Below are positions 2,998-56,756 of a stretch of DNA of 64,000 nt, piece by piece; within the stretch, counting starts at the first letter, position 1, and every line of letters starts with the position of its first letter. The position numbers were made by a program, and so were the translations under genes. The stretch is from Candidatus Zhuqueibacterota bacterium (GTDB lineage: Bacteria; Zhuqueibacterota; Zhuqueibacteria; Thermofontimicrobiales; Thermofontimicrobiaceae), in NCBI GenBank assembly GCA_049322915.1, contig JBMOPW010000003.1, positions 21,801 through 85,800 on the forward strand, given 5' to 3'. The notes beneath the pieces are model-generated. The model saw only the letters and a program-made list of their open reading frames with translations. It had not been told where the DNA came from and made no database searches.

Positions 2998-3105
2998 TTA
3001 ACCCTACTACGTCACATAGATTTTTTATCGTTGTATATTGTATTTTTGATAGATGAAAAACTCAACATAGTGTGATAAATTTACTAAATGACGTTGTAGG
3101 GTTAA
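2998..3105 (+). mobile_element. MITE family B copy 1 (108 bp, 17-bp terminal inverted repeats ttaaccctac[t/a]acgtca)
   Basis: 107/108 identical to the reverse complement of 40419-40526; ends are mutual reverse complements; no ORF. Confidence 0.7.
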
Positions 3106-3248
3106 TATCCCCCAACTTATGGGCAAGGGTAAGCCCAAAAGGCGAGGGAGAACAGATGGTCCCCTTCTTGCCCGCAGGGTAAGAAGGGGTTTTGGGGATG
3201 AGCTCTGACGTAGTGAAGTTTGAAAATATCACCCCCATAGCTAATTCA

Positions 3249-3410
3249 GCCTGCATTATTCATAGTATTTTTAGAGGAGGCTGGCTAACCTGAATGGTGC
3301 TCTTTTTAGAATAAACGTATAAAAACTGAGTTTCAAAATAGCTTAGCCTTTAGCTAATTGAAAATCTCAATGTTGACTCAAATTCTGAGCAAGTTCATGA
3401 ATAATTCAGG
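3249..3410 (-). mobile_element. MITE family A copy 1 (about 160 bp, terminal inverted repeat gcctg[a/c]attattcat), inverted relative to the other two copies
   Basis: Near-full-length reverse-complement match to 53139-53298 with a few mismatches; TIRs present. Confidence 0.7.
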
Positions 3411-3494
3411 TTAGGTGTTTTCGGACAGACTCTATTGAGCTAAACTTGATTATAAAAATCCATTTTAAAAATTTAGGTTTAGTAAAAAATAAAC

Positions 3495-4880
3495 TTATCT
3501 TCGTGCCGAATTGGCTACAGCGGCGAACATCTCTTTTGTGAACGCCACTTCTTTTTTGTGGTCAACAAGGCATGCCGGGTAGTCGGACAGCCCTTTCCCC
3601 GACTCCAGGCCGTGAATGGTCGCCGGGGTAAAATCTGACAATTCAGAGACCCATTTTCGAATGTAGCGGCATTCCCCGTCAAATTTTTTTTGCTGATTCC
3701 AGGGATTGAAAATGCGGAAATAGGGCTGAGCGTCGCAGCCAATGGATGCTGCCCATTGCCAGTTTCCGTTGTTGACGCAAGGATCATAATCCAGCAGGTG
3801 ACGCGCAAAATAGGCCTCGCCCCAGCGCCAGTCAATGCGCAAATCCTTCACCAGAAAGGACGCGACAATCATGCGCAGGCGATTGTGCATGAATCCGGTT
3901 TCATTCAACTCGCGCATGCCGGCATCCACAATGGGATAGCCGGTTTGCCCCTGACACCACGCCTGGAATTTATCAGCGTTGTTTTCCCAGACCAGCCCGT
4001 CGTATTTTCGTTTGAACGCATGCCCGAAGACATGGGGGAAGAAGTACCCGATCAGCGTGAAAAAATCCCGCCAGTAAAATTGCCTGATGAGCGGATGGTG
4101 TTCGCCCAACTGCTGAAAGACGCTGTAGTAGGCTTCCCGGATGGAACAGGCGCCAAATTTGAAATGCACTGAAAGTCGTGTGGTGGCGTCCAGTTCAGGC
4201 ACATCGCGCTCTGTCTCATACTGCCGGAACCGCTCAAGGCCGGATAGAATTTCCATTGCGCGGGATCGCCCTGCCGGAACCGAAGCAAGCTCGCTGTCCG
4301 GGGGTAAAACTTTCCCGAATATTTCGTCGTGAGACTGTCCCGGGCGCTTTGCTGATAAATTGGTAGGCACAGAAGAATTGGGCAACGGCACGGCCAGTTT
4401 CGAGGCATGATTGAAAAATGGCGTGAAGACTGTGTACGGGAAACCATCTTTTTTTAACGCAGCGCCGGGATCTGTCAGCAACGCATCGTGCAAGCCGATG
4501 AAAGGGGTATTTAACTTTTCACAGGCGGCGTTCAACTGCGCGTCGCGCTGCCGGCTGAATGGGGTGTAATCGTGATTGAAAAACACGGCATCGATGGCAT
4601 GCCCGGCCAGAATCTGCTCCAGCACACGGGCCGGGTCGCCGAAGAACAGAGATAAGCCACTGTCCATGTGAGTCAATTGAACATGAAGGTCTTGCAGCGC
4701 TTTCACCATGAAAAGCAGGCCCGGTCTGCTCCGATAGGGATGCGGTTCAACCTGTCGCGGATCAAAAATAAAACAGGGAATCACTTCCCGCGATCGCAGG
4801 AGCGCCTCGCGCAACCCGGAATTGTCTTCGAGCCGGAGGTCGCGTCGGAAAATAAACAGGGAGGTGTTGAATTTTTTCAT
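3495..4880 (-). CDS. phr: Deoxyribodipyrimidine photolyase / cryptochrome family protein
   Basis: 461-aa ORF; N-terminus FIFRRDLRLEDNSGL and C-terminal FAD-binding region (WRWGEAYFARHLLDYDPCVNNGNWQWAAS) typical of the photolyase family; ATG with GGAG upstream. Confidence 0.9.
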   Translation of the reverse strand: MKKFNTSLFIFRRDLRLEDNSGLREALLRSREVIPCFIFDPRQVEPHPYRSRPGLLFMVKALQDLHVQLTHMDSGLSLFFGDPARVLEQILAGHAIDAVFFNHDYTPFSRQRDAQLNAACEKLNTPFIGLHDALLTDPGAALKKDGFPYTVFTPFFNHASKLAVPLPNSSVPTNLSAKRPGQSHDEIFGKVLPPDSELASVPAGRSRAMEILSGLERFRQYETERDVPELDATTRLSVHFKFGACSIREAYYSVFQQLGEHHPLIRQFYWRDFFTLIGYFFPHVFGHAFKRKYDGLVWENNADKFQAWCQGQTGYPIVDAGMRELNETGFMHNRLRMIVASFLVKDLRIDWRWGEAYFARHLLDYDPCVNNGNWQWAASIGCDAQPYFRIFNPWNQQKKFDGECRYIRKWVSELSDFTPATIHGLESGKGLSDYPACLVDHKKEVAFTKEMFAAVANSARR

Positions 4881-10333: not shown

Positions 10334-12220
10334 TCATTTTATGACTGTCAGTTTATACCACTGAGCACCCCTGCAAGTTTCGATGCGATACAGGTAAACG
10401 CCGGAAGCGACAGATTGACCTGCGTTATTTTGCCCGTTCCAGAGCACGCGGTTCCAGCCGGGATTCGCGATGAGATTGGGCCAGGATTTTATCAGTTGGC
10501 CCAGCGGATTGAAAATCTGCACGTTTGCCGGGCCCGGTCGTTCAGCATAAAACTGAATGGTCGTGGCGTTGTTGAGCGGATTGGGATAGTTGAAGCTGGT
10601 CTCATATTTTTCAGGCAAGGCATCAGGAACAATTTCCACGGCCGTTGAATTGGGCAACCATTCCATCAGTTTTTCCCGCTCCATCTCGCCGCCGCTGGAG
10701 CTATTGGCGACATTGTACGTCCACCACATCCCGGTGACGCCGCCGCCGCTGATGGTGGTTGAAAACGCCTGGTTGGACATGGCGCCGAAATAACGCGCCT
10801 GGTTGCCGGGATATTCTTTATCATCCCAGGTGCAGTCAATCGGAACCCATCCGTAATTGGGAAAATAGACCTGCTGCCAGCGATGAAAGATGCGGTCTTC
10901 GTACGGGAGGTCGTCGCGAAGATGCCCGCCAGCTTCCATTCGCGCCGGGATGCCGGCGGCGCGGCACAGCGCCACAAACAAAAACGTGTATTCAGAACAG
11001 GAGCCGGTGCCGCGGCTGAGCACTATCGGAGCGGTGTCCCAACTGCTGTCGTTGATGTATTCGATGTGCGAAATCACGTAATCGTGGATATTGCGCACCT
11101 GCCAGTACAGATTGCTTTCATCGCCAATGGCCTCTTGCGCTGCATTACGAATGACAGGATGGGTTATGTCGTAATACTCGCCGTCCGGCGTGTACATGGT
11201 GATGATGGATTGCGGAATGTCCGTCAATTCGCCAACACTGTCAGGGTGAAGGAAATAGCGGATGTTGTACAGCGTGGCCGGCACAGACCACTGGTACAAT
11301 TTTTCTTCGCCCGCCGGAACGGACTCTTCGTAATAGGCAATTTGTTGACCGAAGTAGTCAGTATAAAAAGTGTGCGGTTCATCCCTGAACTGAAGCGTAT
11401 CTTCCAATTGCTGGTAGACGGCTTCGAACGGGCAGGCTAAGTAGGTCTGCAAATTCATCACGCTGGAGCCGACATTTTTGATGGTGACAGTGTACCTGAT
11501 TTTCACCAGAAATGGATCGGTGATTTGATATTTTTCTGTTCCGGCGATGGAGATTTTATAAATCCGGTCGTGCTCGTAATCGGCATTCCAGAGGAAATGG
11601 CCGTCGAAAGCCAGTCCGTAGGAATAGGTACCCGGCGCATTCAGGATAGTGAAAATCCTGCCGCGATCTGTTTCCAGCCGGTAGATTTCATCTTTATCGT
11701 AATCCGCGCACCATAGATATTCGCCGTCCCAGGCTAATCCGCGATTGTAGCCGCCGGGCGAAATGAGCGTGTCGGCGTAGCTGCCGGTTTCCGGGTTTAG
11801 TTTGAAGATGCGCTTCGCCTGGCTGTCCACGTACCAGAGAAACTCGCCGTCCCAAGTTAGCCCGCGGGGATTTTCGGTTCCCACCGGAACAATTTTGGTG
11901 ATGGAACTATCTTCGACGTCGATTTGGCAGAGCTGGTCGTGCCCGTTATCCGAGCACCAGAGGAACTGGCCGTCCCAGGCCAGGCCGTTTATCGTGGCGT
12001 TTGCCGGGCTGGGCAGGGAATAGAGTACCTGTCCGGTCTGCGGATCGATCTTGTAAATTTGGTTTGTGCCAATATCCGCATTCCACAAAAATTCGCCGTC
12101 CCAGGCTAACCCGGTGGGGCGACTCCCGGGCGAAGGGAAAAAATCCAGGACAGCACCCATCTGGGCGTGACCAGTTGAAAAGAGAAAAAGAATAATCCCG
12201 ATGAGCTTCATTGGTTTCAT
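10334..12220 (-). CDS. Secreted beta-propeller repeat / transglutaminase-like cysteine protease-fold protein with T9SS C-terminal sorting domain
   Basis: Signal peptide; 5-6 repeats of GLAWDG(E/Q)FLW; transglutaminase-like core GSCSEYTFLFVALCRAAGIPAR with downstream H and D (HRWQQVYFPNYGWVPID); C-terminus NYPNPLNNATTIQF...GVYLYRI. Confidence 0.75.
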   Translation of the reverse strand: MKPMKLIGIILFLFSTGHAQMGAVLDFFPSPGSRPTGLAWDGEFLWNADIGTNQIYKIDPQTGQVLYSLPSPANATINGLAWDGQFLWCSDNGHDQLCQIDVEDSSITKIVPVGTENPRGLTWDGEFLWYVDSQAKRIFKLNPETGSYADTLISPGGYNRGLAWDGEYLWCADYDKDEIYRLETDRGRIFTILNAPGTYSYGLAFDGHFLWNADYEHDRIYKISIAGTEKYQITDPFLVKIRYTVTIKNVGSSVMNLQTYLACPFEAVYQQLEDTLQFRDEPHTFYTDYFGQQIAYYEESVPAGEEKLYQWSVPATLYNIRYFLHPDSVGELTDIPQSIITMYTPDGEYYDITHPVIRNAAQEAIGDESNLYWQVRNIHDYVISHIEYINDSSWDTAPIVLSRGTGSCSEYTFLFVALCRAAGIPARMEAGGHLRDDLPYEDRIFHRWQQVYFPNYGWVPIDCTWDDKEYPGNQARYFGAMSNQAFSTTISGGGVTGMWWTYNVANSSSGGEMEREKLMEWLPNSTAVEIVPDALPEKYETSFNYPNPLNNATTIQFYAERPGPANVQIFNPLGQLIKSWPNLIANPGWNRVLWNGQNNAGQSVASGVYLYRIETCRGAQWYKLTVIK

Positions 12221-16015: not shown

Positions 16016-17629
16016 TCATTCGAGCGGTGACCATTCACCGTATTGTTCGATGTAAATGCGACATTTATCTTTGGATGTCCATCGATTATTGAAGTTGTAT
16101 GTCCAGTCGAGATAATCGGAGCCCCCGCCGCCAGTGGTAGTAATGATATAGCGGCAGGCGATATTGCCAATGCCGGCTGCCTGTTCGCCGGGTCTGGCTT
16201 TGTCGCCTTTGTTGGCGTCGAAGGGGATCCAGCCGTAATTTGGCAGATACACCTCGCACCATCGATGATAGACTTCGTCGAGGCTGGCGTCGTCGCCCCG
16301 TTGCGATACAGCGCCGACATAACGGGCAGGAAGCCCTGCGGCGCGGCACAGCGCGATGAATGAAAATGAATATTCGGAACAGGATGCCGTGCCTCGTTTC
16401 AAGACGGTCGTTGCAGTGTTCCACCCGCCGACTGGCTTTAAATTGTACGTGAGATTTTCGATGAGATAATTAAAAATCTTCCGCGCCATCCAGTAGGGAT
16501 TCTGCTCGTCCCCAACGATTTTTTTTGCCAGGTTCTGAATGAAGGGTTCGTGGACGTTGAGTTTCTTTCCATCAGCAAGATACGTTTTCAATATTTCAAC
16601 CGGCACACTTTCGAGTGCGCCCACTTTAACCGGATCAATGAAATATTCGGCCGCCCAGATCGTGGCATCAATGGTCATCGTCGCCCGAAAAAATTCCCCG
16701 CTTTTAAGATTTTTCACATTGAAATAAGCGACCTTTTGGCCCCATTGGTCAGTCAGGATTTTTTCCGGTTCAGGGACAAATGTGACGGGGCGAGACAGTT
16801 GCTGGTTATCCCTGTTTTCCGGGATGGCGAGATACACATCTGCCGAGATGACGGTGCCTGGTCCGTAATTTCTGAAATCGATGGTATTCTCCAGCCGTTG
16901 TTTCTTGGGGGACAACTTTGTCAGAAACACCGGATCATCGATTTTTATCCTATAAATTTTGTCCGCTTGATAATCCACATTCCAGAGAAAAGCGCCATCC
17001 CAGGCGAGTCCGCGGGCGTATTGGTCCGGTGCGTGAATGGACCCGATGACCATGCCGCTGTTCCGATCCATGCGATAAATAGCATTCTCGCCCCGATCGG
17101 CGATCCACAAACAGTGCCCGTCAAAAGCCAATCCGTCAGGATCGTCGGCTGGCGATGGGAAATTGTGAATCATCATGCCGTCCTCAGGGTCAAGACTGAG
17201 CACCAGATCCAGTTTGTCATCGACGACCCAGAGCAATGTACCATCCCAGCAAATGTCTTTGGGATTATCGGTGCAGGCTTCGATCACGCGTTCAGCGATT
17301 CCGGTTTCAATATTCATTCTGTAAAGAAATCGCTCCTTATCATCCATCGCCCAGAGATGCGTGCCATCCCAGGCCAAACCCGTCGGACTGAAACCGGGCG
17401 CGGGAAAAGTGTGAATGACGAGGCCATTATTCGGATCGATCTGATACAGATTATCAGTTTTTCGGTCAGCAACCCAGAGGTATTTTCCGTCAAACGCAAG
17501 CCCCGTCGGATGGTCTCCGGGTGAATTCATTGTGTATACGATTTCACCAACAAAAGCAAAACTCACCTGTGAGCAAAGGCTCATCCAACTGAGGAAGCCA
17601 AGCATAAACCATATTCTCAAGGTTTTCAT
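16016..17629 (-). CDS. Beta-propeller repeat / transglutaminase-like protein, paralogue of 10334-12220 lacking the T9SS C-terminal domain
   Basis: 537-aa ORF; signal peptide; GLAFDGKYLW/GLAWDGTHLW repeats; core GTASCSEYSFSFIALCRAAGLPAR plus HRWCEVYLPNYGWIPFD; GAGGAG RBS. Confidence 0.75.
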   Translation of the reverse strand: MKTLRIWFMLGFLSWMSLCSQVSFAFVGEIVYTMNSPGDHPTGLAFDGKYLWVADRKTDNLYQIDPNNGLVIHTFPAPGFSPTGLAWDGTHLWAMDDKERFLYRMNIETGIAERVIEACTDNPKDICWDGTLLWVVDDKLDLVLSLDPEDGMMIHNFPSPADDPDGLAFDGHCLWIADRGENAIYRMDRNSGMVIGSIHAPDQYARGLAWDGAFLWNVDYQADKIYRIKIDDPVFLTKLSPKKQRLENTIDFRNYGPGTVISADVYLAIPENRDNQQLSRPVTFVPEPEKILTDQWGQKVAYFNVKNLKSGEFFRATMTIDATIWAAEYFIDPVKVGALESVPVEILKTYLADGKKLNVHEPFIQNLAKKIVGDEQNPYWMARKIFNYLIENLTYNLKPVGGWNTATTVLKRGTASCSEYSFSFIALCRAAGLPARYVGAVSQRGDDASLDEVYHRWCEVYLPNYGWIPFDANKGDKARPGEQAAGIGNIACRYIITTTGGGGSDYLDWTYNFNNRWTSKDKCRIYIEQYGEWSPLE

Positions 17630-39256: not shown

Positions 39257-39738
39257 TCACGTTCCTCCACTATTAACCTCAGGCGAAAACTCGTTTTAAT
39301 TAGAATACCGCCGGTCACAAATCTTTGCATAAAAAAAGCCCCTGGCACCTCACAAATGGTCTGCCAACGGCTCTACAATTTCTCGGAAAATTTTAATCAT
39401 AAAGGTATCTAATGACATACGCCTTGTTTGTCTCAGATAGTTAATTTTTCCCTCCCAGGTCATTCTGCTCATCTCAAAATTTAATATGGACAAAAATATA
39501 GAAAATTTAAATTTAAAAATCAAGTAGATTCTTAAAAAATAATTGTAATTTTCTCTGCGCTGCATGGTCTGCCTGACGCACTTATTCCAAACTTGCCCAT
39601 TCGTCACTGCCGGCATTTTTTCATTCCTGACCATCATAACTATTGCAATTTTATTTTAATTTTTTTATCTTTACCTGCAATCTCGCAACGCGTCTGGGTT
39701 CAGCGAATGATACAGGAATTTGGGTAAAGGGTCAAGCT

Positions 39739-40161
39739 ATGTCTTCGCAAAAATTCATTCAGTTAGACCATACCGGCGATTTAAGGGTGATGGTTTTTGG
39801 AAAATCATTAAAAGAACTGTTTGAAAATTCTGCCATCGCATTGTTCAGCCAGATTACGGACATCTCCCGGGTCAATCACGATTCCACGGACTCACTCCAC
39901 GTCACCGGTATCGATAAAGAAGAACTGCTGGTGAGCTGGCTTTCGGAATTGAATTATATGCATATAACCGAAGGAAAGTTGTTCAGTAAATTCGATATCT
40001 CCCATATCAGCGACACAAAGCTCACAGCCATCGCCTTTGGTGAAAAATATAATCCCTTCCGGCATTCGTCAGGTTTTGAAATCAAGGCGGTGACTTTTCA
40101 CGACCTGCAAATTGAGAAAAAAGACGATCTGTGGCAGACCAGGATCGTATTTGATATTTAA
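39739..40161 (+). CDS. Archease (RtcB activator)
   Basis: Start MSSQKFIQLDHTGDLRVMVFGKSLKELFENSAIALF (archease DHT(A/G)D N-terminal motif); 140 aa; immediately upstream of rtcB; the track ORF begins earlier with TTG. Confidence 0.75.
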   Translation: MSSQKFIQLDHTGDLRVMVFGKSLKELFENSAIALFSQITDISRVNHDSTDSLHVTGIDKEELLVSWLSELNYMHITEGKLFSKFDISHISDTKLTAIAFGEKYNPFRHSSGFEIKAVTFHDLQIEKKDDLWQTRIVFDI

Positions 40162-40418
40162 GCATTCACCGATTCATCGCGATGTGTTTCTGATCTGAAG
40201 GAAATGTCAGTAATGGGCGGGTCCGCGGCTCGGATATCGCAGCGCGTTCACGGCGCGCCGACTTGAATGCCACAGGCGCTCTTCAGTCGTGCCATCGGCA
40301 GATTGAGCAGCAGGATTGTAAATTTTTCGGCGCCAAGCCCGGTTCGATGGAATCCATCGAAGCAATATACATGCTGGCGCCTGGCGCAAACTAAACTGTG
40401 TGATATTAGAACTGAAAA

Positions 40419-40526
40419 TTAACCCTACAACGTCATTTAGTAAATTTATCACAATATGTTGAGTTTTTCATCTATCAAAAATACAATATACAACGATAAA
40501 AAATCTATGTGACGTAGTAGGGTTAA
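40419..40526 (-). mobile_element. MITE family B copy 2 (108 bp), inverted relative to copy 1, 18 bp upstream of the rtcB ATG
   Basis: Reverse complement of 2998-3105 with a single mismatch. Confidence 0.7.
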
Positions 40527-40544: not shown

Positions 40545-41987
40545 ATGTCAGACGTGAAATTGAAAAAGATCAACGATTATCTCTGGGAAATTCCCAAGGA
40601 AGATAAAATGCATGTCCCCGGCCGGATTTACGCGACGCAAAAAATGCTGTCCCATATTCAGGAGGAGGATGCGCCGAAGCAGGTGCAAAATGTCGCGCAT
40701 TTGCCGGGCATTGTGGATTGGTCCATGGCCATGCCGGACATCCATTGGGGCTATGGTTTTCCCATCGGCGGCGTGGCTGCGTTCGATGTCGACGAGGGCG
40801 TGATTTCGCCCGGCGGCGTTGGTTATGACATTAACTGCGGGGTACGGCTGCTCAAAACACAATTGGTACGGAGCGACATTCAATCCAAAATCCAGTTGCT
40901 GGTCGCCAGCATGTTCAAATATATCCCGAGCGGCGTCGGTTCTTCCGGCCCATTGAAAACCAGCGATAGCGAATTGAAAAAGGTCATGGTGAAAGGAGCG
41001 CGCTGGGCGGTTCAGAACGGTTATGGCGACGAGGACGATCTCGATAAAATCGAGGAAAATGGAGAGATGCCGGGAGCTGACCCATCGACTGTCAGCCAGA
41101 AAGCCATCACGCGGGGCCGGCCGCAATTGGGCACTCTGGGCTCTGGCAACCATTTTGTTGAAATTCAATACATCGATAAAATTTTCGACGCGGAGCTGGG
41201 CCAGCGCCTGGGACTTTTCGAAGGCCAGATTACGGTGTCCATCCATACCGGATCGCGCGGATTTGGCTATCAAATCTGCGATGATTCCATTCACAAGATG
41301 ATTCTCGCTTCTCAGAAATACGGCATTGAACTGCCGGATCGGCAACTCTGCGCTGCGCCCATCACGTCGCCGGAGGGCAAAGAGTATTTTGCTGCCATGG
41401 TCTGCGCCGTCAACTACGCATTTGCCAATCGCCAGATCATCTCGCACTGGGTGGAAGAAGCATTCATCCGCTCGTTGAAATCAACTCCCAACCAGGTTAA
41501 ATTCAGCACGGTTTACGAAGTCGCCCACAATATTGCCAAATTCGAAACGCATATCGTGCATGGGAAAAAGCGAATGCTGTGCGTCCATCGAAAAGGCGCC
41601 ACCCGCGCATTTGGACCGGGCCGGGTTGAACTGCCGGAAATGTACCGCGACATCGGCCAGCCGGTGTTGATCCCCGGGGACATGGGCCGCAGTTCCTACG
41701 TGCTGATCGGCACCGAAGCAGCGATGGAACAGACGTTTGGTTCCACCTGTCACGGCGCCGGCCGGCTGATGAGTCGCAATAAAGCCATTCAACTGGCGCG
41801 CGGCCGATCGATCCAGAATGAACTGGCGCAGCAGGGAATTGAAGTGATGGCAGCGAGCCGGGCGACCCTGGCGGAAGAAATGCCCGAAGCCTACAAAGAT
41901 GTTTCCGATGTCGTCGAGGCTGTTGTCGGCGCCGGAATCTCGAAAAAGGTGGCCAGATTGCGCCCTATGGGCGTGATCAAAGGCTGA
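40545..41987 (+). CDS. rtcB: RNA-splicing ligase RtcB (long, archaeal/eukaryal-type, 480 aa)
   Basis: Motifs HWGYGFPIGGVAAFD, GYDINCGVRLL, GSGNHFVEIQ, CHGAGR; ATG start. Confidence 0.95.
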   Translation: MSDVKLKKINDYLWEIPKEDKMHVPGRIYATQKMLSHIQEEDAPKQVQNVAHLPGIVDWSMAMPDIHWGYGFPIGGVAAFDVDEGVISPGGVGYDINCGVRLLKTQLVRSDIQSKIQLLVASMFKYIPSGVGSSGPLKTSDSELKKVMVKGARWAVQNGYGDEDDLDKIEENGEMPGADPSTVSQKAITRGRPQLGTLGSGNHFVEIQYIDKIFDAELGQRLGLFEGQITVSIHTGSRGFGYQICDDSIHKMILASQKYGIELPDRQLCAAPITSPEGKEYFAAMVCAVNYAFANRQIISHWVEEAFIRSLKSTPNQVKFSTVYEVAHNIAKFETHIVHGKKRMLCVHRKGATRAFGPGRVELPEMYRDIGQPVLIPGDMGRSSYVLIGTEAAMEQTFGSTCHGAGRLMSRNKAIQLARGRSIQNELAQQGIEVMAASRATLAEEMPEAYKDVSDVVEAVVGAGISKKVARLRPMGVIKG

Positions 41988-52879: not shown

Positions 52880-53602
52880 ATGAGAGCAACTATCCTTTTC
52901 CTGACGGTCGCCATCTTGCTGGCCGGTGCTCTGTCAACTTCGAACGGACAGGAAGCAGGGGAGATGAAGCGATCGGACTATGGCGTCTTCAGCTTCTGGC
53001 AGAGCGTGACGCTGCCCGGCGCGCCGGGGATCATCTACGATGCCATCACCGGGGATATCAGCGGATGGTGGGATCACACCTTCTCCGGAAAGCCGGCGCG
53101 TTTTTTCATCGAGCCCAAACCCGGCGGCGGCTTCTATCCTGAATTATTCATGAACTTGCTCAGAATTTGAGTCAACATTCAGATTTTCAATTAGCTAAAA
53201 GCTAAGCTATTTTGAAACTAAGTTTTTGTACGTTTATTCTAAAAAGAGCACCATTCAGGTTAGCCAGCCTCCTTTAAAAATACTATGAATAATGCAGGCT
53301 ATGAAATTTTTGATGAAAGCGGCGATGGCGTGTTACACGCCACGGTCATTTATGCCCAGCGCGGCAAACTGCTGCGGTTCGAGGGCCCGCTCGGCCTTTC
53401 CGGCAGAGCCGTGACGCTCGTGTGCAGCTATTCTTTCGCTGCGGTCGGCGCCGATTCCACAAAACTGATATTGGACGTCCATATAGCCGGTGAAATCGAT
53501 GCCGCCACAGCGCAGATCGTGAAAAGCGTCTGGCATCATTTCATCATCGAACAATTTAAACCCTACATCGAATTGGGCAAGCACCTGAAGAAAAAGGACT
53601 GA
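52880..53602 (+). pseudogene. Secreted SRPBCC (AHSA1/CalC-like) protein gene interrupted in-frame by a MITE insertion
   Basis: ORF 52880-53170 (MRATILFLTVAILLAGAL... IIYDAITGDISGWWDH ... KPGGGFY) and ORF 53285-53602 (EIFDESGDGVLHATVIYAQRGKLLRFEGPLG...) share one frame; removing 53139-53300 joins them into a single SRPBCC-like reading frame. Confidence 0.7.
53139..53298 (+). mobile_element. MITE family A copy 2, flanked by TA dinucleotides (candidate target-site duplication)
   Basis: TIR tcctgaattattcat / atgaataatgcaggc; TA at 53137-53138 and 53299-53300; matches 3249-3410 (inverted) and 56464-56616. Confidence 0.7.
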
Positions 53603-56463: not shown

Positions 56464-56616
56464 TTCATGAATTCTCCAATAGGCCAACTTAACATTATGT
56501 TTTCATAATGTGTGAATGTATATGCAAAATCAAACTCAGTTTTATATTCAAATTTTAAATTTATGCACCATTCAGGTTATCCCGCTTCCTTTAAAAATAC
56601 AATGAATAATGCGGGT
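56464..56616 (+). mobile_element. MITE family A copy 3 (diverged interior), about 140 bp upstream of the ABC ATPase gene
   Basis: Both termini match copy 2 (gcctgaattattcatgaa ... caccattcaggtta.cc.gc.tcctttaaaaatac.atgaataatgc.gg); TA flanks at 56462-56463 and 56617-56618. Confidence 0.55.
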
Positions 56617-56756
56617 TAGAAATTTTTAGACAAAAAAATGAAAAAGTTTTCTCATAAAGTTGATAATAACATTTTGTAAATTCATTCTTTGAGTCTTAGC
56701 GCCTTTGTGGCTATTGCATTATCCGGGTTGATAACCTATTCATCCGAAAAGCGACC

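Follow-up and report, generated by a model that had tools for sequence, protein, structure and literature searches.

Two inverted 108-bp sequences, one immediately upstream of rtcB in a Candidatus Zhuqueibacterota contig, are very probably MITE copies with the ends of an IS701-family clade and a duplicated TTAA

In the stretch of 64,000 nucleotides analysed here (hereafter "the window"; contig JBMOPW010000003.1 of a Candidatus Zhuqueibacterota bacterium, all positions counted from its first letter), a 108-bp sequence at 40419-40526 ends 18 bp before the start codon of rtcB (40545), between the genes for archease and the RNA-repair protein, and a second sequence of the same kind lies in opposite orientation at 2998-3105. 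What are these sequences, and does the one next to rtcB do anything for that gene? The first-pass annotation regarded them as two inverted, almost identical copies of a MITE family situated 37 kb apart, one of them 18 bp upstream of rtcB, and took their similarity as a sign of recent mobility or gene conversion. The positions given there are correct, and our analysis places the family: we are confident that the two sequences are MITE copies which carry the ends of a clade of IS701-family insertion sequences and are flanked by a duplicated TTAA. The arguments for this come from the exact boundaries of the copies, from the recurrence of the same termini in many other genomes and metagenomes, and from full-length elements that bear these termini around a transposase gene.

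Alignment of 40419-40526 (plus strand) with the reverse complement of 2998-3105 gives 107 matches in 108 positions, in agreement with the earlier statement that the sequences are reverse complements with a single mismatch; the sole difference is A at 40454 versus G at 3070 (plus strand). A repeat finder run on the window reports the pair as a 109-nt inverted repeat with 99% complementarity. Apart from one extra A, the identity of the copies ends on both sides at the outer TTAA, and beyond it the flanks are unrelated. Copy 1 lies in an AT-rich intergenic stretch past the 3' end of a photolyase gene (3495-4880, minus strand) and consists of TTAA (2998-3001), a 100-bp body (3002-3101) and TTAA (3102-3105). 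Copy 2 is composed in the same way of a left TTAA (40419-40422), a body (40423-40522, plus strand) and a right TTAA (40523-40526). The terminal 17-mer TTAACCCTACWACGTCA has four matches in the window, which are exactly the four ends of the two copies (0.06 expected according to shuffled sequences). Since the two copies differ by one base, their movement appears to be recent, and from the near-identity together with the precise boundaries we infer mobility in the host genome.

The first-pass annotation described the termini as 17-bp TIRs. The inverted ends are indeed present at both ends of both copies, while the length has to be revised: the 17 bp resolve into a 4-bp TTAA duplication and a 13-bp TIR, CCCTAC[A/T]ACGTCA, with one mismatch (A/T at position 7), so that the element proper measures 100 bp. 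In copy 2 the left TIR (40423-40435, plus strand), located by pattern search, reads CCCTACAACGTCA and is identical to ends of IS701-family elements, and the right TIR (40510-40522), found in the same way, reads CCCTACTACGTCA on the minus strand and fits the published IS701 end consensus. Beyond the TIRs a weaker complementarity runs inward, and the AT-rich body as a whole is predicted to fold as a single long hairpin; the fold prediction proposed by the first-pass annotation gives -37.4 kcal/mol for the RNA (z = -9.3), and the corresponding value for the DNA is z = -5.6. The 100-bp body, below the limit of about 600 bp for MITEs, has no coding capacity, and the only open reading frames that extend into it are spurious.

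The window contains further repeats that are distinct from this pair. About 140 bp from copy 1 there is another family with a 167-nt unit (3248-3414, 53134-53300 and 56565-56635), the first two copies of which show 96% inverted identity; the third copy is partial and reaches 83-88%. Periodic repeats with a 123-bp unit, imperfect at 62-78% identity, are found at 11558-12113 and 16952-17374 within two large minus-strand ORFs (10334-12220 and 16016-17629), and are probably 41-residue protein repeats common to two paralogous genes. The 167-nt family also matters for the comparison with Logan contigs: the contig with the photolyase gene ends inside the 3248-3414 repeat (at about window position 3388) and not in copy 1, and is uninformative about copy 1 because it ends in that other repeat. 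The contig that encodes a 100% identical RtcB, from the Logan assembly of run SRR32167788, stops 29 nt inside copy 2, as is expected of an assembly at a repeat.

The TTAA on each side of both copies could be read either as the outermost part of the TIR or, as the first-pass annotation also considered, as a 4-bp target duplication. Loci from elsewhere settle the matter in favour of the latter: the TTAA flank is a direct 4-bp target-site duplication and not part of the TIR. In one locus (L043) two adjoining elements have one TTAA in common (...GTAGGG TTAA CCCTAC...), another (L049) contains one MITE with direct TAAA/TAAA flanks, and four identical copies of a full-length insertion sequence (P0202, discussed below), located on contigs of 367-630 kb, have direct flanks, TTAT/TTAT in two cases and TTAA/TTAA in the other two. 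The TTAT/TTAT flanks therefore represent a direct duplication, as an extension of the inverted repeat would read TTAT...ATAA. A duplication of only the 2-bp TA is disfavoured because insertion sequences that are the same in all other positions would then have to differ in their terminal base. The target preference may be TTAA/TTAW, or a looser NTAN; the central TA is kept in most other flanks seen. In short-read metagenome contigs the outer bases of the duplication are often unequal between the two sides, which for some of them is probably due to chimeric assembly at repeats, or else may reflect the looser NTAN target. The preference for TTAA is in part imposed by the query, because both public scans described below required TTAA on one side. 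For copy 2, joining the flanks through a single TTAA predicts the empty site ...GAACTGAAAA-TTAA-TGTAACAGGG...; no empty site was recovered for either copy in relatives, whose intergenic DNA does not align with that of the window.

To see how far these termini extend beyond the window we scanned public genomes and metagenomes; in the pattern-matched set of ends the 13-mer is followed by Y-T-T. A scan of one genome per species, in which the 17-mer with TTAA on one side was required, yielded at least 95 loci, far above chance and clustered in particular MAGs, and a metagenome scan with the same requirement of TTAA on one side yielded at least 120 loci. Among the genome matches listed, a scripted analysis found 80 elements that have both ends and measure 64-332 bp; in 70 of these 80, TTAA is also present at the end left free by the search pattern. 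The metagenome matches listed are about half short elements and half ends without a nearby partner; they include 63 further short elements, as well as two-ended elements of 1.5-2.1 kb. In total, more than 140 short two-ended elements with the same termini are present in genomes and metagenomes. The commonest length class is 100-101 nt (34 of the 80 listed genome elements and 15 of the 63 listed metagenome elements), to which the window element conforms. According to the labels in the MAG records, the genome-scan hosts belong to Actinomycetota (Ca. Hakubella), Thermodesulfobacteriota (including Desulfobacterales and Syntrophobacterales), Ca. Neomarinimicrobiota, Nitrospirae and Pseudomonadota; with Ca. 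Zhuqueibacterota, the host of the window, the number of phylum-level groups in which the termini occur comes to at least six. Ten or more loci each are present in CAYTUQ01, JAHIOG01 and Ca. Hakubella. A blastn search of a plasmid collection with the element returned low-complexity noise only, and a single match in a viral contig, which falls within a coding sequence, was rejected as due to chance. We also discarded an end frequency matrix built at up to 3 mismatches, which was dominated by chance matches to the 13-mer.

The members of the family have little in common apart from their tips. Between the window element and other members the first 18-23 nt alone match, the best match being 36 nt at 89%, and an internal foldback past the TIR is no general property of the 100-101-nt class, with z-scores between -5.7 and +2.5 when only the interior is shuffled. 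Conserved tips around a drifting interior are the pattern expected of elements whose tips are recognised by a protein, and not of a conserved RNA. Longer members often consist of a 101-nt unit that harbours other small palindromic elements. The nested elements include a second MITE of about 68 nt with the ends GGGGGTGTGATA...TATCACACCCCC and TA flanks, present in several copies of the TTAA-flanked MITE (L036, L039, L045, L046, L049, L063, L089, L095 and L097, mostly from Marinimicrobia-like MAGs); small palindromes are inserted as well, which results in modular composite repeats of 160-305 bp. A separate case is the 1412-nt contig JAGGSD010000387.1 (L012), which has at its two ends perfect inverted repeats of about 43 nt (CCTTAAACATGCTTTGTAAAAGTTAC...) that enclose a copy of the TTAA-flanked MITE and a gene for an MBL-fold protein (Lactamase_B_2). 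These 43-nt repeats either belong to an unrelated family or arose as an artefact of assembly, and a de novo search of the listed genome loci for ORFs between inverted repeats found nothing else.

The family gains a partner from the longer elements. For several of the metagenome ends without a nearby partner, the second end is 1.44-2.07 kb away, and the ORFs of two such full-length elements (L188, 437 aa, and L220, 485 aa) are IS701-family transposases: they score 345 and 354 bits with NCBIfam NF033540, for which the cutoff is 150, and match Pfam DDE_5 (PF13546) with E-values of 9e-52 and 8e-56. Homologues with 46-72% identity adjoin the repeat at no fewer than 21 loci. A protein search with the limit E <= 1e-30 detected 6,882 relatives, the majority of them on contigs of 1.5-2 kb, under generic database names such as "SRSO17 transposase" or "IS701 family transposase". 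As a control we fetched loci solely by exact identity to three of the transposases (P0202, P0178 and P0229), ignoring the repeat, and all nine loci fetched in this way end in CCCTACAACG...; the P0202 element, represented by the four copies mentioned above, is 1539 bp long. The ends can also be compared with the published description of the IS701 family (PMC2266710), in which the consensus for the ends is ---YACT-Y--YR and the duplication measures exactly 4 bp: CCCTACTACGTCA fits 7 of the 7 specified positions and CCCTACAACGTCA fits 6 of 7. IS701 elements with the end CTGTACT... and an nTAG duplication are described from Deinococcus radiopugnans (PMC10017437). No solved structure related to the transposase was found by sequence search. 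A low-confidence structure model of P0202 (mean pLDDT 56) used for a fold search identified Tn5 transposase as the top match (1muh, E = 1e-6), with piggyBac at rank 23; we take this match as supporting evidence only.

Within the 64-kb window, tblastn found no IS701 transposase, and the element may be orphaned in its host genome. Among the listed genome loci, too, no transposase was found beside the repeat, possibly because MAGs usually lose multicopy insertion sequences during assembly and binning. No IS701 seed was found on the plasmids pDGEO01 of Deinococcus geothermalis and pREB1 of Acaryochloris.

The full-length elements show some features of their own. The transposase-proximal end (in L154, L179, L206, L220 and L136) has a conserved CTTGACA about 20 nt inside, with a TA-rich hexamer 17 nt past TTGACA (e.g. 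TTGACA-17-TAATAT in L136), an arrangement that looks like a transposase promoter overlapping the end of the insertion sequence. This end has the tip ACGACA, in place of the ACGTCA found at the distal end and at both ends of the window element. One 1743-nt contig (L183, JGI Ga0307380_10235007) has IS701-type ends about 1440 bp apart with flanks TTAA/ATAA, which enclose no transposase and instead a single ORF of about 456 aa with the Pfam domains RRXRR and HNH that resembles IscB nucleases of solved structure (E = 1e-36 to 1e-46). The distance from the tip to this ORF is only about 55 nt, too short for an omega-RNA in its usual upstream place; the locus could be a captured cargo or a chance juxtaposition.

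The two window copies, read as MITEs of this clade, suggest the following route. A DDE transposase with a Tn5/IS4-like fold, encoded by the insertion sequence and made from a full-length copy elsewhere, would bind both 13-17-nt tips (CCCTACAACGTCA and then YTT) and move the short element in trans. Integration would take place at TTAA, or more loosely at TTAW/NTAN, with staggered cuts 4 bp apart, and repair of these cuts would duplicate the tetranucleotide. Mobilisation in trans, its cut-and-paste or copy-and-paste mode, and the existence of a cognate transposase in the host genome are what we infer from the termini and the related elements.

The position of copy 2 calls for a separate consideration. 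In the window, archease (39643-40161) is followed by rtcB (40545-41987) and then by ligA, and the space between archease and rtcB is 383 bp, the last part of which is taken up by the element. The first-pass annotation placed the element on the ribosome-binding site of rtcB. This proved incorrect: the 18 nt between the right TTAA and the ATG, TGTAACAGGGCATACTCC, lie outside the element and contain AGGG at -12 to -9, and in relatives GAGG-type sites occur at a similar distance before rtcB. The remainder of the intergenic space, 40162-40418, is 257 bp of unique and apparently non-coding DNA with no copies elsewhere and an ordinary fold (z = -1.0).

The comparison with relatives that the first-pass annotation proposed covered the archease-rtcB regions of genomes whose RtcB is 85%, 84% and 77% identical, two of the contigs beginning about 100 bp before rtcB. 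The element was not found upstream of rtcB in the relatives with 85% (L098) and 77% (L101) identity, in which the intergenic DNA is too divergent to be aligned; in the two truncated contigs (L099 and L100), with about 76-101 nt available upstream of rtcB, there is no trace of it. The two genes are 26 bp apart in L101, and in L098, the closest relative in which this interval is intact, a 105-aa MazG-family gene (L098 3650-3967) stands between them. A tblastn search with the MazG protein of L098 found no remnant of it in window 40162-40418.

The most likely interpretation of copy 2 is an insertion into an AT-rich TTAA that was tolerated and is largely neutral. The insertion leaves the ribosome-binding region of rtcB intact; it would add a strong hairpin to any transcript reading through from archease into rtcB, or, less likely, provide an outward-reading promoter. 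Going by its position, an effect of the element on rtcB expression is possible. An explicit form of this idea, namely that the rtcB-proximal copy has been co-opted as a promoter into rtcB or as a hairpin, in the 5'-UTR or between the cistrons, by which the archease-rtcB transcript is controlled in its processing, stability or read-through, is in our estimate unlikely, although it has several points in its favour. The element ends 18 bp short of the ATG, in the space between two genes that relatives have side by side or almost so; a pair of promoter-like hexamers, TTGAGT-17-TACAAT (40459-40487, plus strand), faces rtcB inside copy 2, with a consensus match of 9/12; the hairpin of -37 kcal/mol has no U-run after it, no terminator was called, and it is thus not a canonical terminator; and Correia MITEs carry working promoters (PMC10969869). 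On the other hand, the element region has 4 promoter-like sites versus 3.1 +/- 1.5 in shuffled sequences, which is not above chance, and neither tip is of the type that contains the TTGACA promoter box of the insertion sequences. A nearly identical copy resides in an unrelated intergenic spot, and relatives do without the element altogether. Regulatory co-option is in any case compatible with the identification as a MITE; the dispute concerns function alone.

Other explanations would replace the identification itself. The TTAA target and the termini of the form 5'-CCC...GGG-3' recall a MITE of the IS1380 or piggyBac kind. The ends of IS1380-family members that we collected (ISEcp1, IS1247, ISSsu5 and IS1678) begin with CC and are associated with 4-5 bp duplications, the ISEcp1 end CCTAGATTCTACGTCAGT has CTACGTCA in common with the window element, and IS1678 is flanked by ATAC/ATAC. 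This lead was dropped: tblastn with the ISEcp1 transposase found no homologue at the listed 95 genome loci, whereas IS701-family partners were found, and the protein encoded by the full-length elements with these ends is in every case of the IS701 family. The fold search, albeit with a low-confidence model, also puts Tn5 far above piggyBac. We consider an origin from either of these groups very improbable.

Equally improbable is a conserved structured RNA or a protein-binding operator of the archease-rtcB operon, which is suggested by the strong full-length hairpin and the location directly upstream of rtcB. A conserved RNA or operator at orthologous positions was what the first-pass annotation itself had set against a mobile element, and the relatives do not show one. 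The second copy, at a distance of 37 kb, has unrelated surroundings, the sequences shared within the family are limited to the tips, and the foldback is not general. The window has no Rfam match at the gathering score and no tRNA; an Rfam scan by E-value returned plant miRNA hairpins only, at 20-25 bits against gathering scores of 100-195.

The remaining two readings can hardly be credited. A REP/REPIN-like palindrome spread by a RAYT (HUH/Y1) enzyme via single-stranded hairpin intermediates would resemble the window element in its length of about 100 nt, the whole-length hairpin and the GTAG/CTAC motif in the tips. REPs are not accompanied by target-site duplications. Here such duplications are present, the tips as read from the sequence are not short palindromes, and identical tips bound insertion sequences with a DDE transposase. 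A segmental duplication or gene conversion without transposition, to which the presence of just two, nearly identical copies in the window would lend itself, is contradicted by the identity that stops at TIR and TTAA between unrelated flanks, by the inverted orientation of the copies and by the recurrence of the same bounded unit across many genomes.

The identification as a MITE of an IS701-family clade invites comparison with known systems. The Correia element duplicates TA and is not known to have a transposase partner. Correia elements (NEMIS/CREE) of Neisseria, RUP, ERIC and MITEAba12 likewise are about 100-150 bp long, with TIRs and a TA-containing duplication; the window family differs from Correia in its 4-bp duplication and in having an identified partner family. 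Correia and similar MITEs are intergenic, often situated just upstream of genes, form hairpins in transcripts and in some cases have promoters (PMC10969869). The full-length partners agree with the IS701 family (IS701, ISRso17 and the D. radiopugnans elements) in the transposase profiles, the end consensus and the 4-bp duplication with a central TA, while the window element, as compared with an IS701 insertion sequence, is geneless and 100 bp long. Compared with described IS701 members, which have ends CTGTACTTTGGGG..., the clade has different ends (CCCTACAACGTCA) and is hosted mostly by uncultured anaerobes. A further comparison is with piggyBac, a eukaryotic DNA transposon, which duplicates TTAA and has ends that begin with CCCTAG. 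The TTAA duplication and the CCCTA termini are alike, but the partner transposase is IS701/IS4-like by profile and, as far as the model can indicate, Tn5-like by fold, and the target of the window family is not strictly TTAA, as TTAT duplications occur. Seamless excision is not known for IS701.

In the literature that we searched, the TIR sequence was not found in a relevant context, neither was IS701 paired with TTAA, and IS701-derived MITEs were not found either; a review of prokaryotic MITEs names neither IS701 nor TTAA. The family is apparently undescribed, of the ordinary MITE type, and widespread in uncultured bacterial phyla. A much bolder reading is that of an undescribed IS701 clade that spreads horizontally, the ends of about 17 nt hardly varying over six or more phylum-level groups while the transposases diverge down to about 46% identity, with a TTAA/TTAW target and a Tn5 fold, able to mobilise other cargo (compare the IscB gene between such ends in one metagenome contig), and with the rtcB copy kept for altering the expression of an RNA-repair gene. 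We regard this combination as doubtful. If true, it would amount to TTAA-specific transposition in prokaryotes by a Tn5-fold enzyme that needs compact ends of 13-17 bp.

For annotation, the present results mean that the 108-bp sequences are to be treated as transposon debris or passengers and not as RNA genes or operators, and the element accounts for the breaks of short-read assemblies just upstream of rtcB. The clade is now characterised by a clear-cut end sequence and by its target, TTAA/TTAW, which are useful for repeat masking, quality control of MAGs and annotation of insertion sequences, and which may serve as a starting point for the biochemistry of IS701 transposases, a family without a solved structure according to the sequence search. 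On a broader scale, a large unnamed set of 100-200-bp repeats in uncultured bacteria of sediments and the subsurface, with hosts that include Desulfobacterota, Marinimicrobia, Nitrospirota, Ca. Hakubella and Zhuqueibacterota, becomes tied to one clade of transposases.
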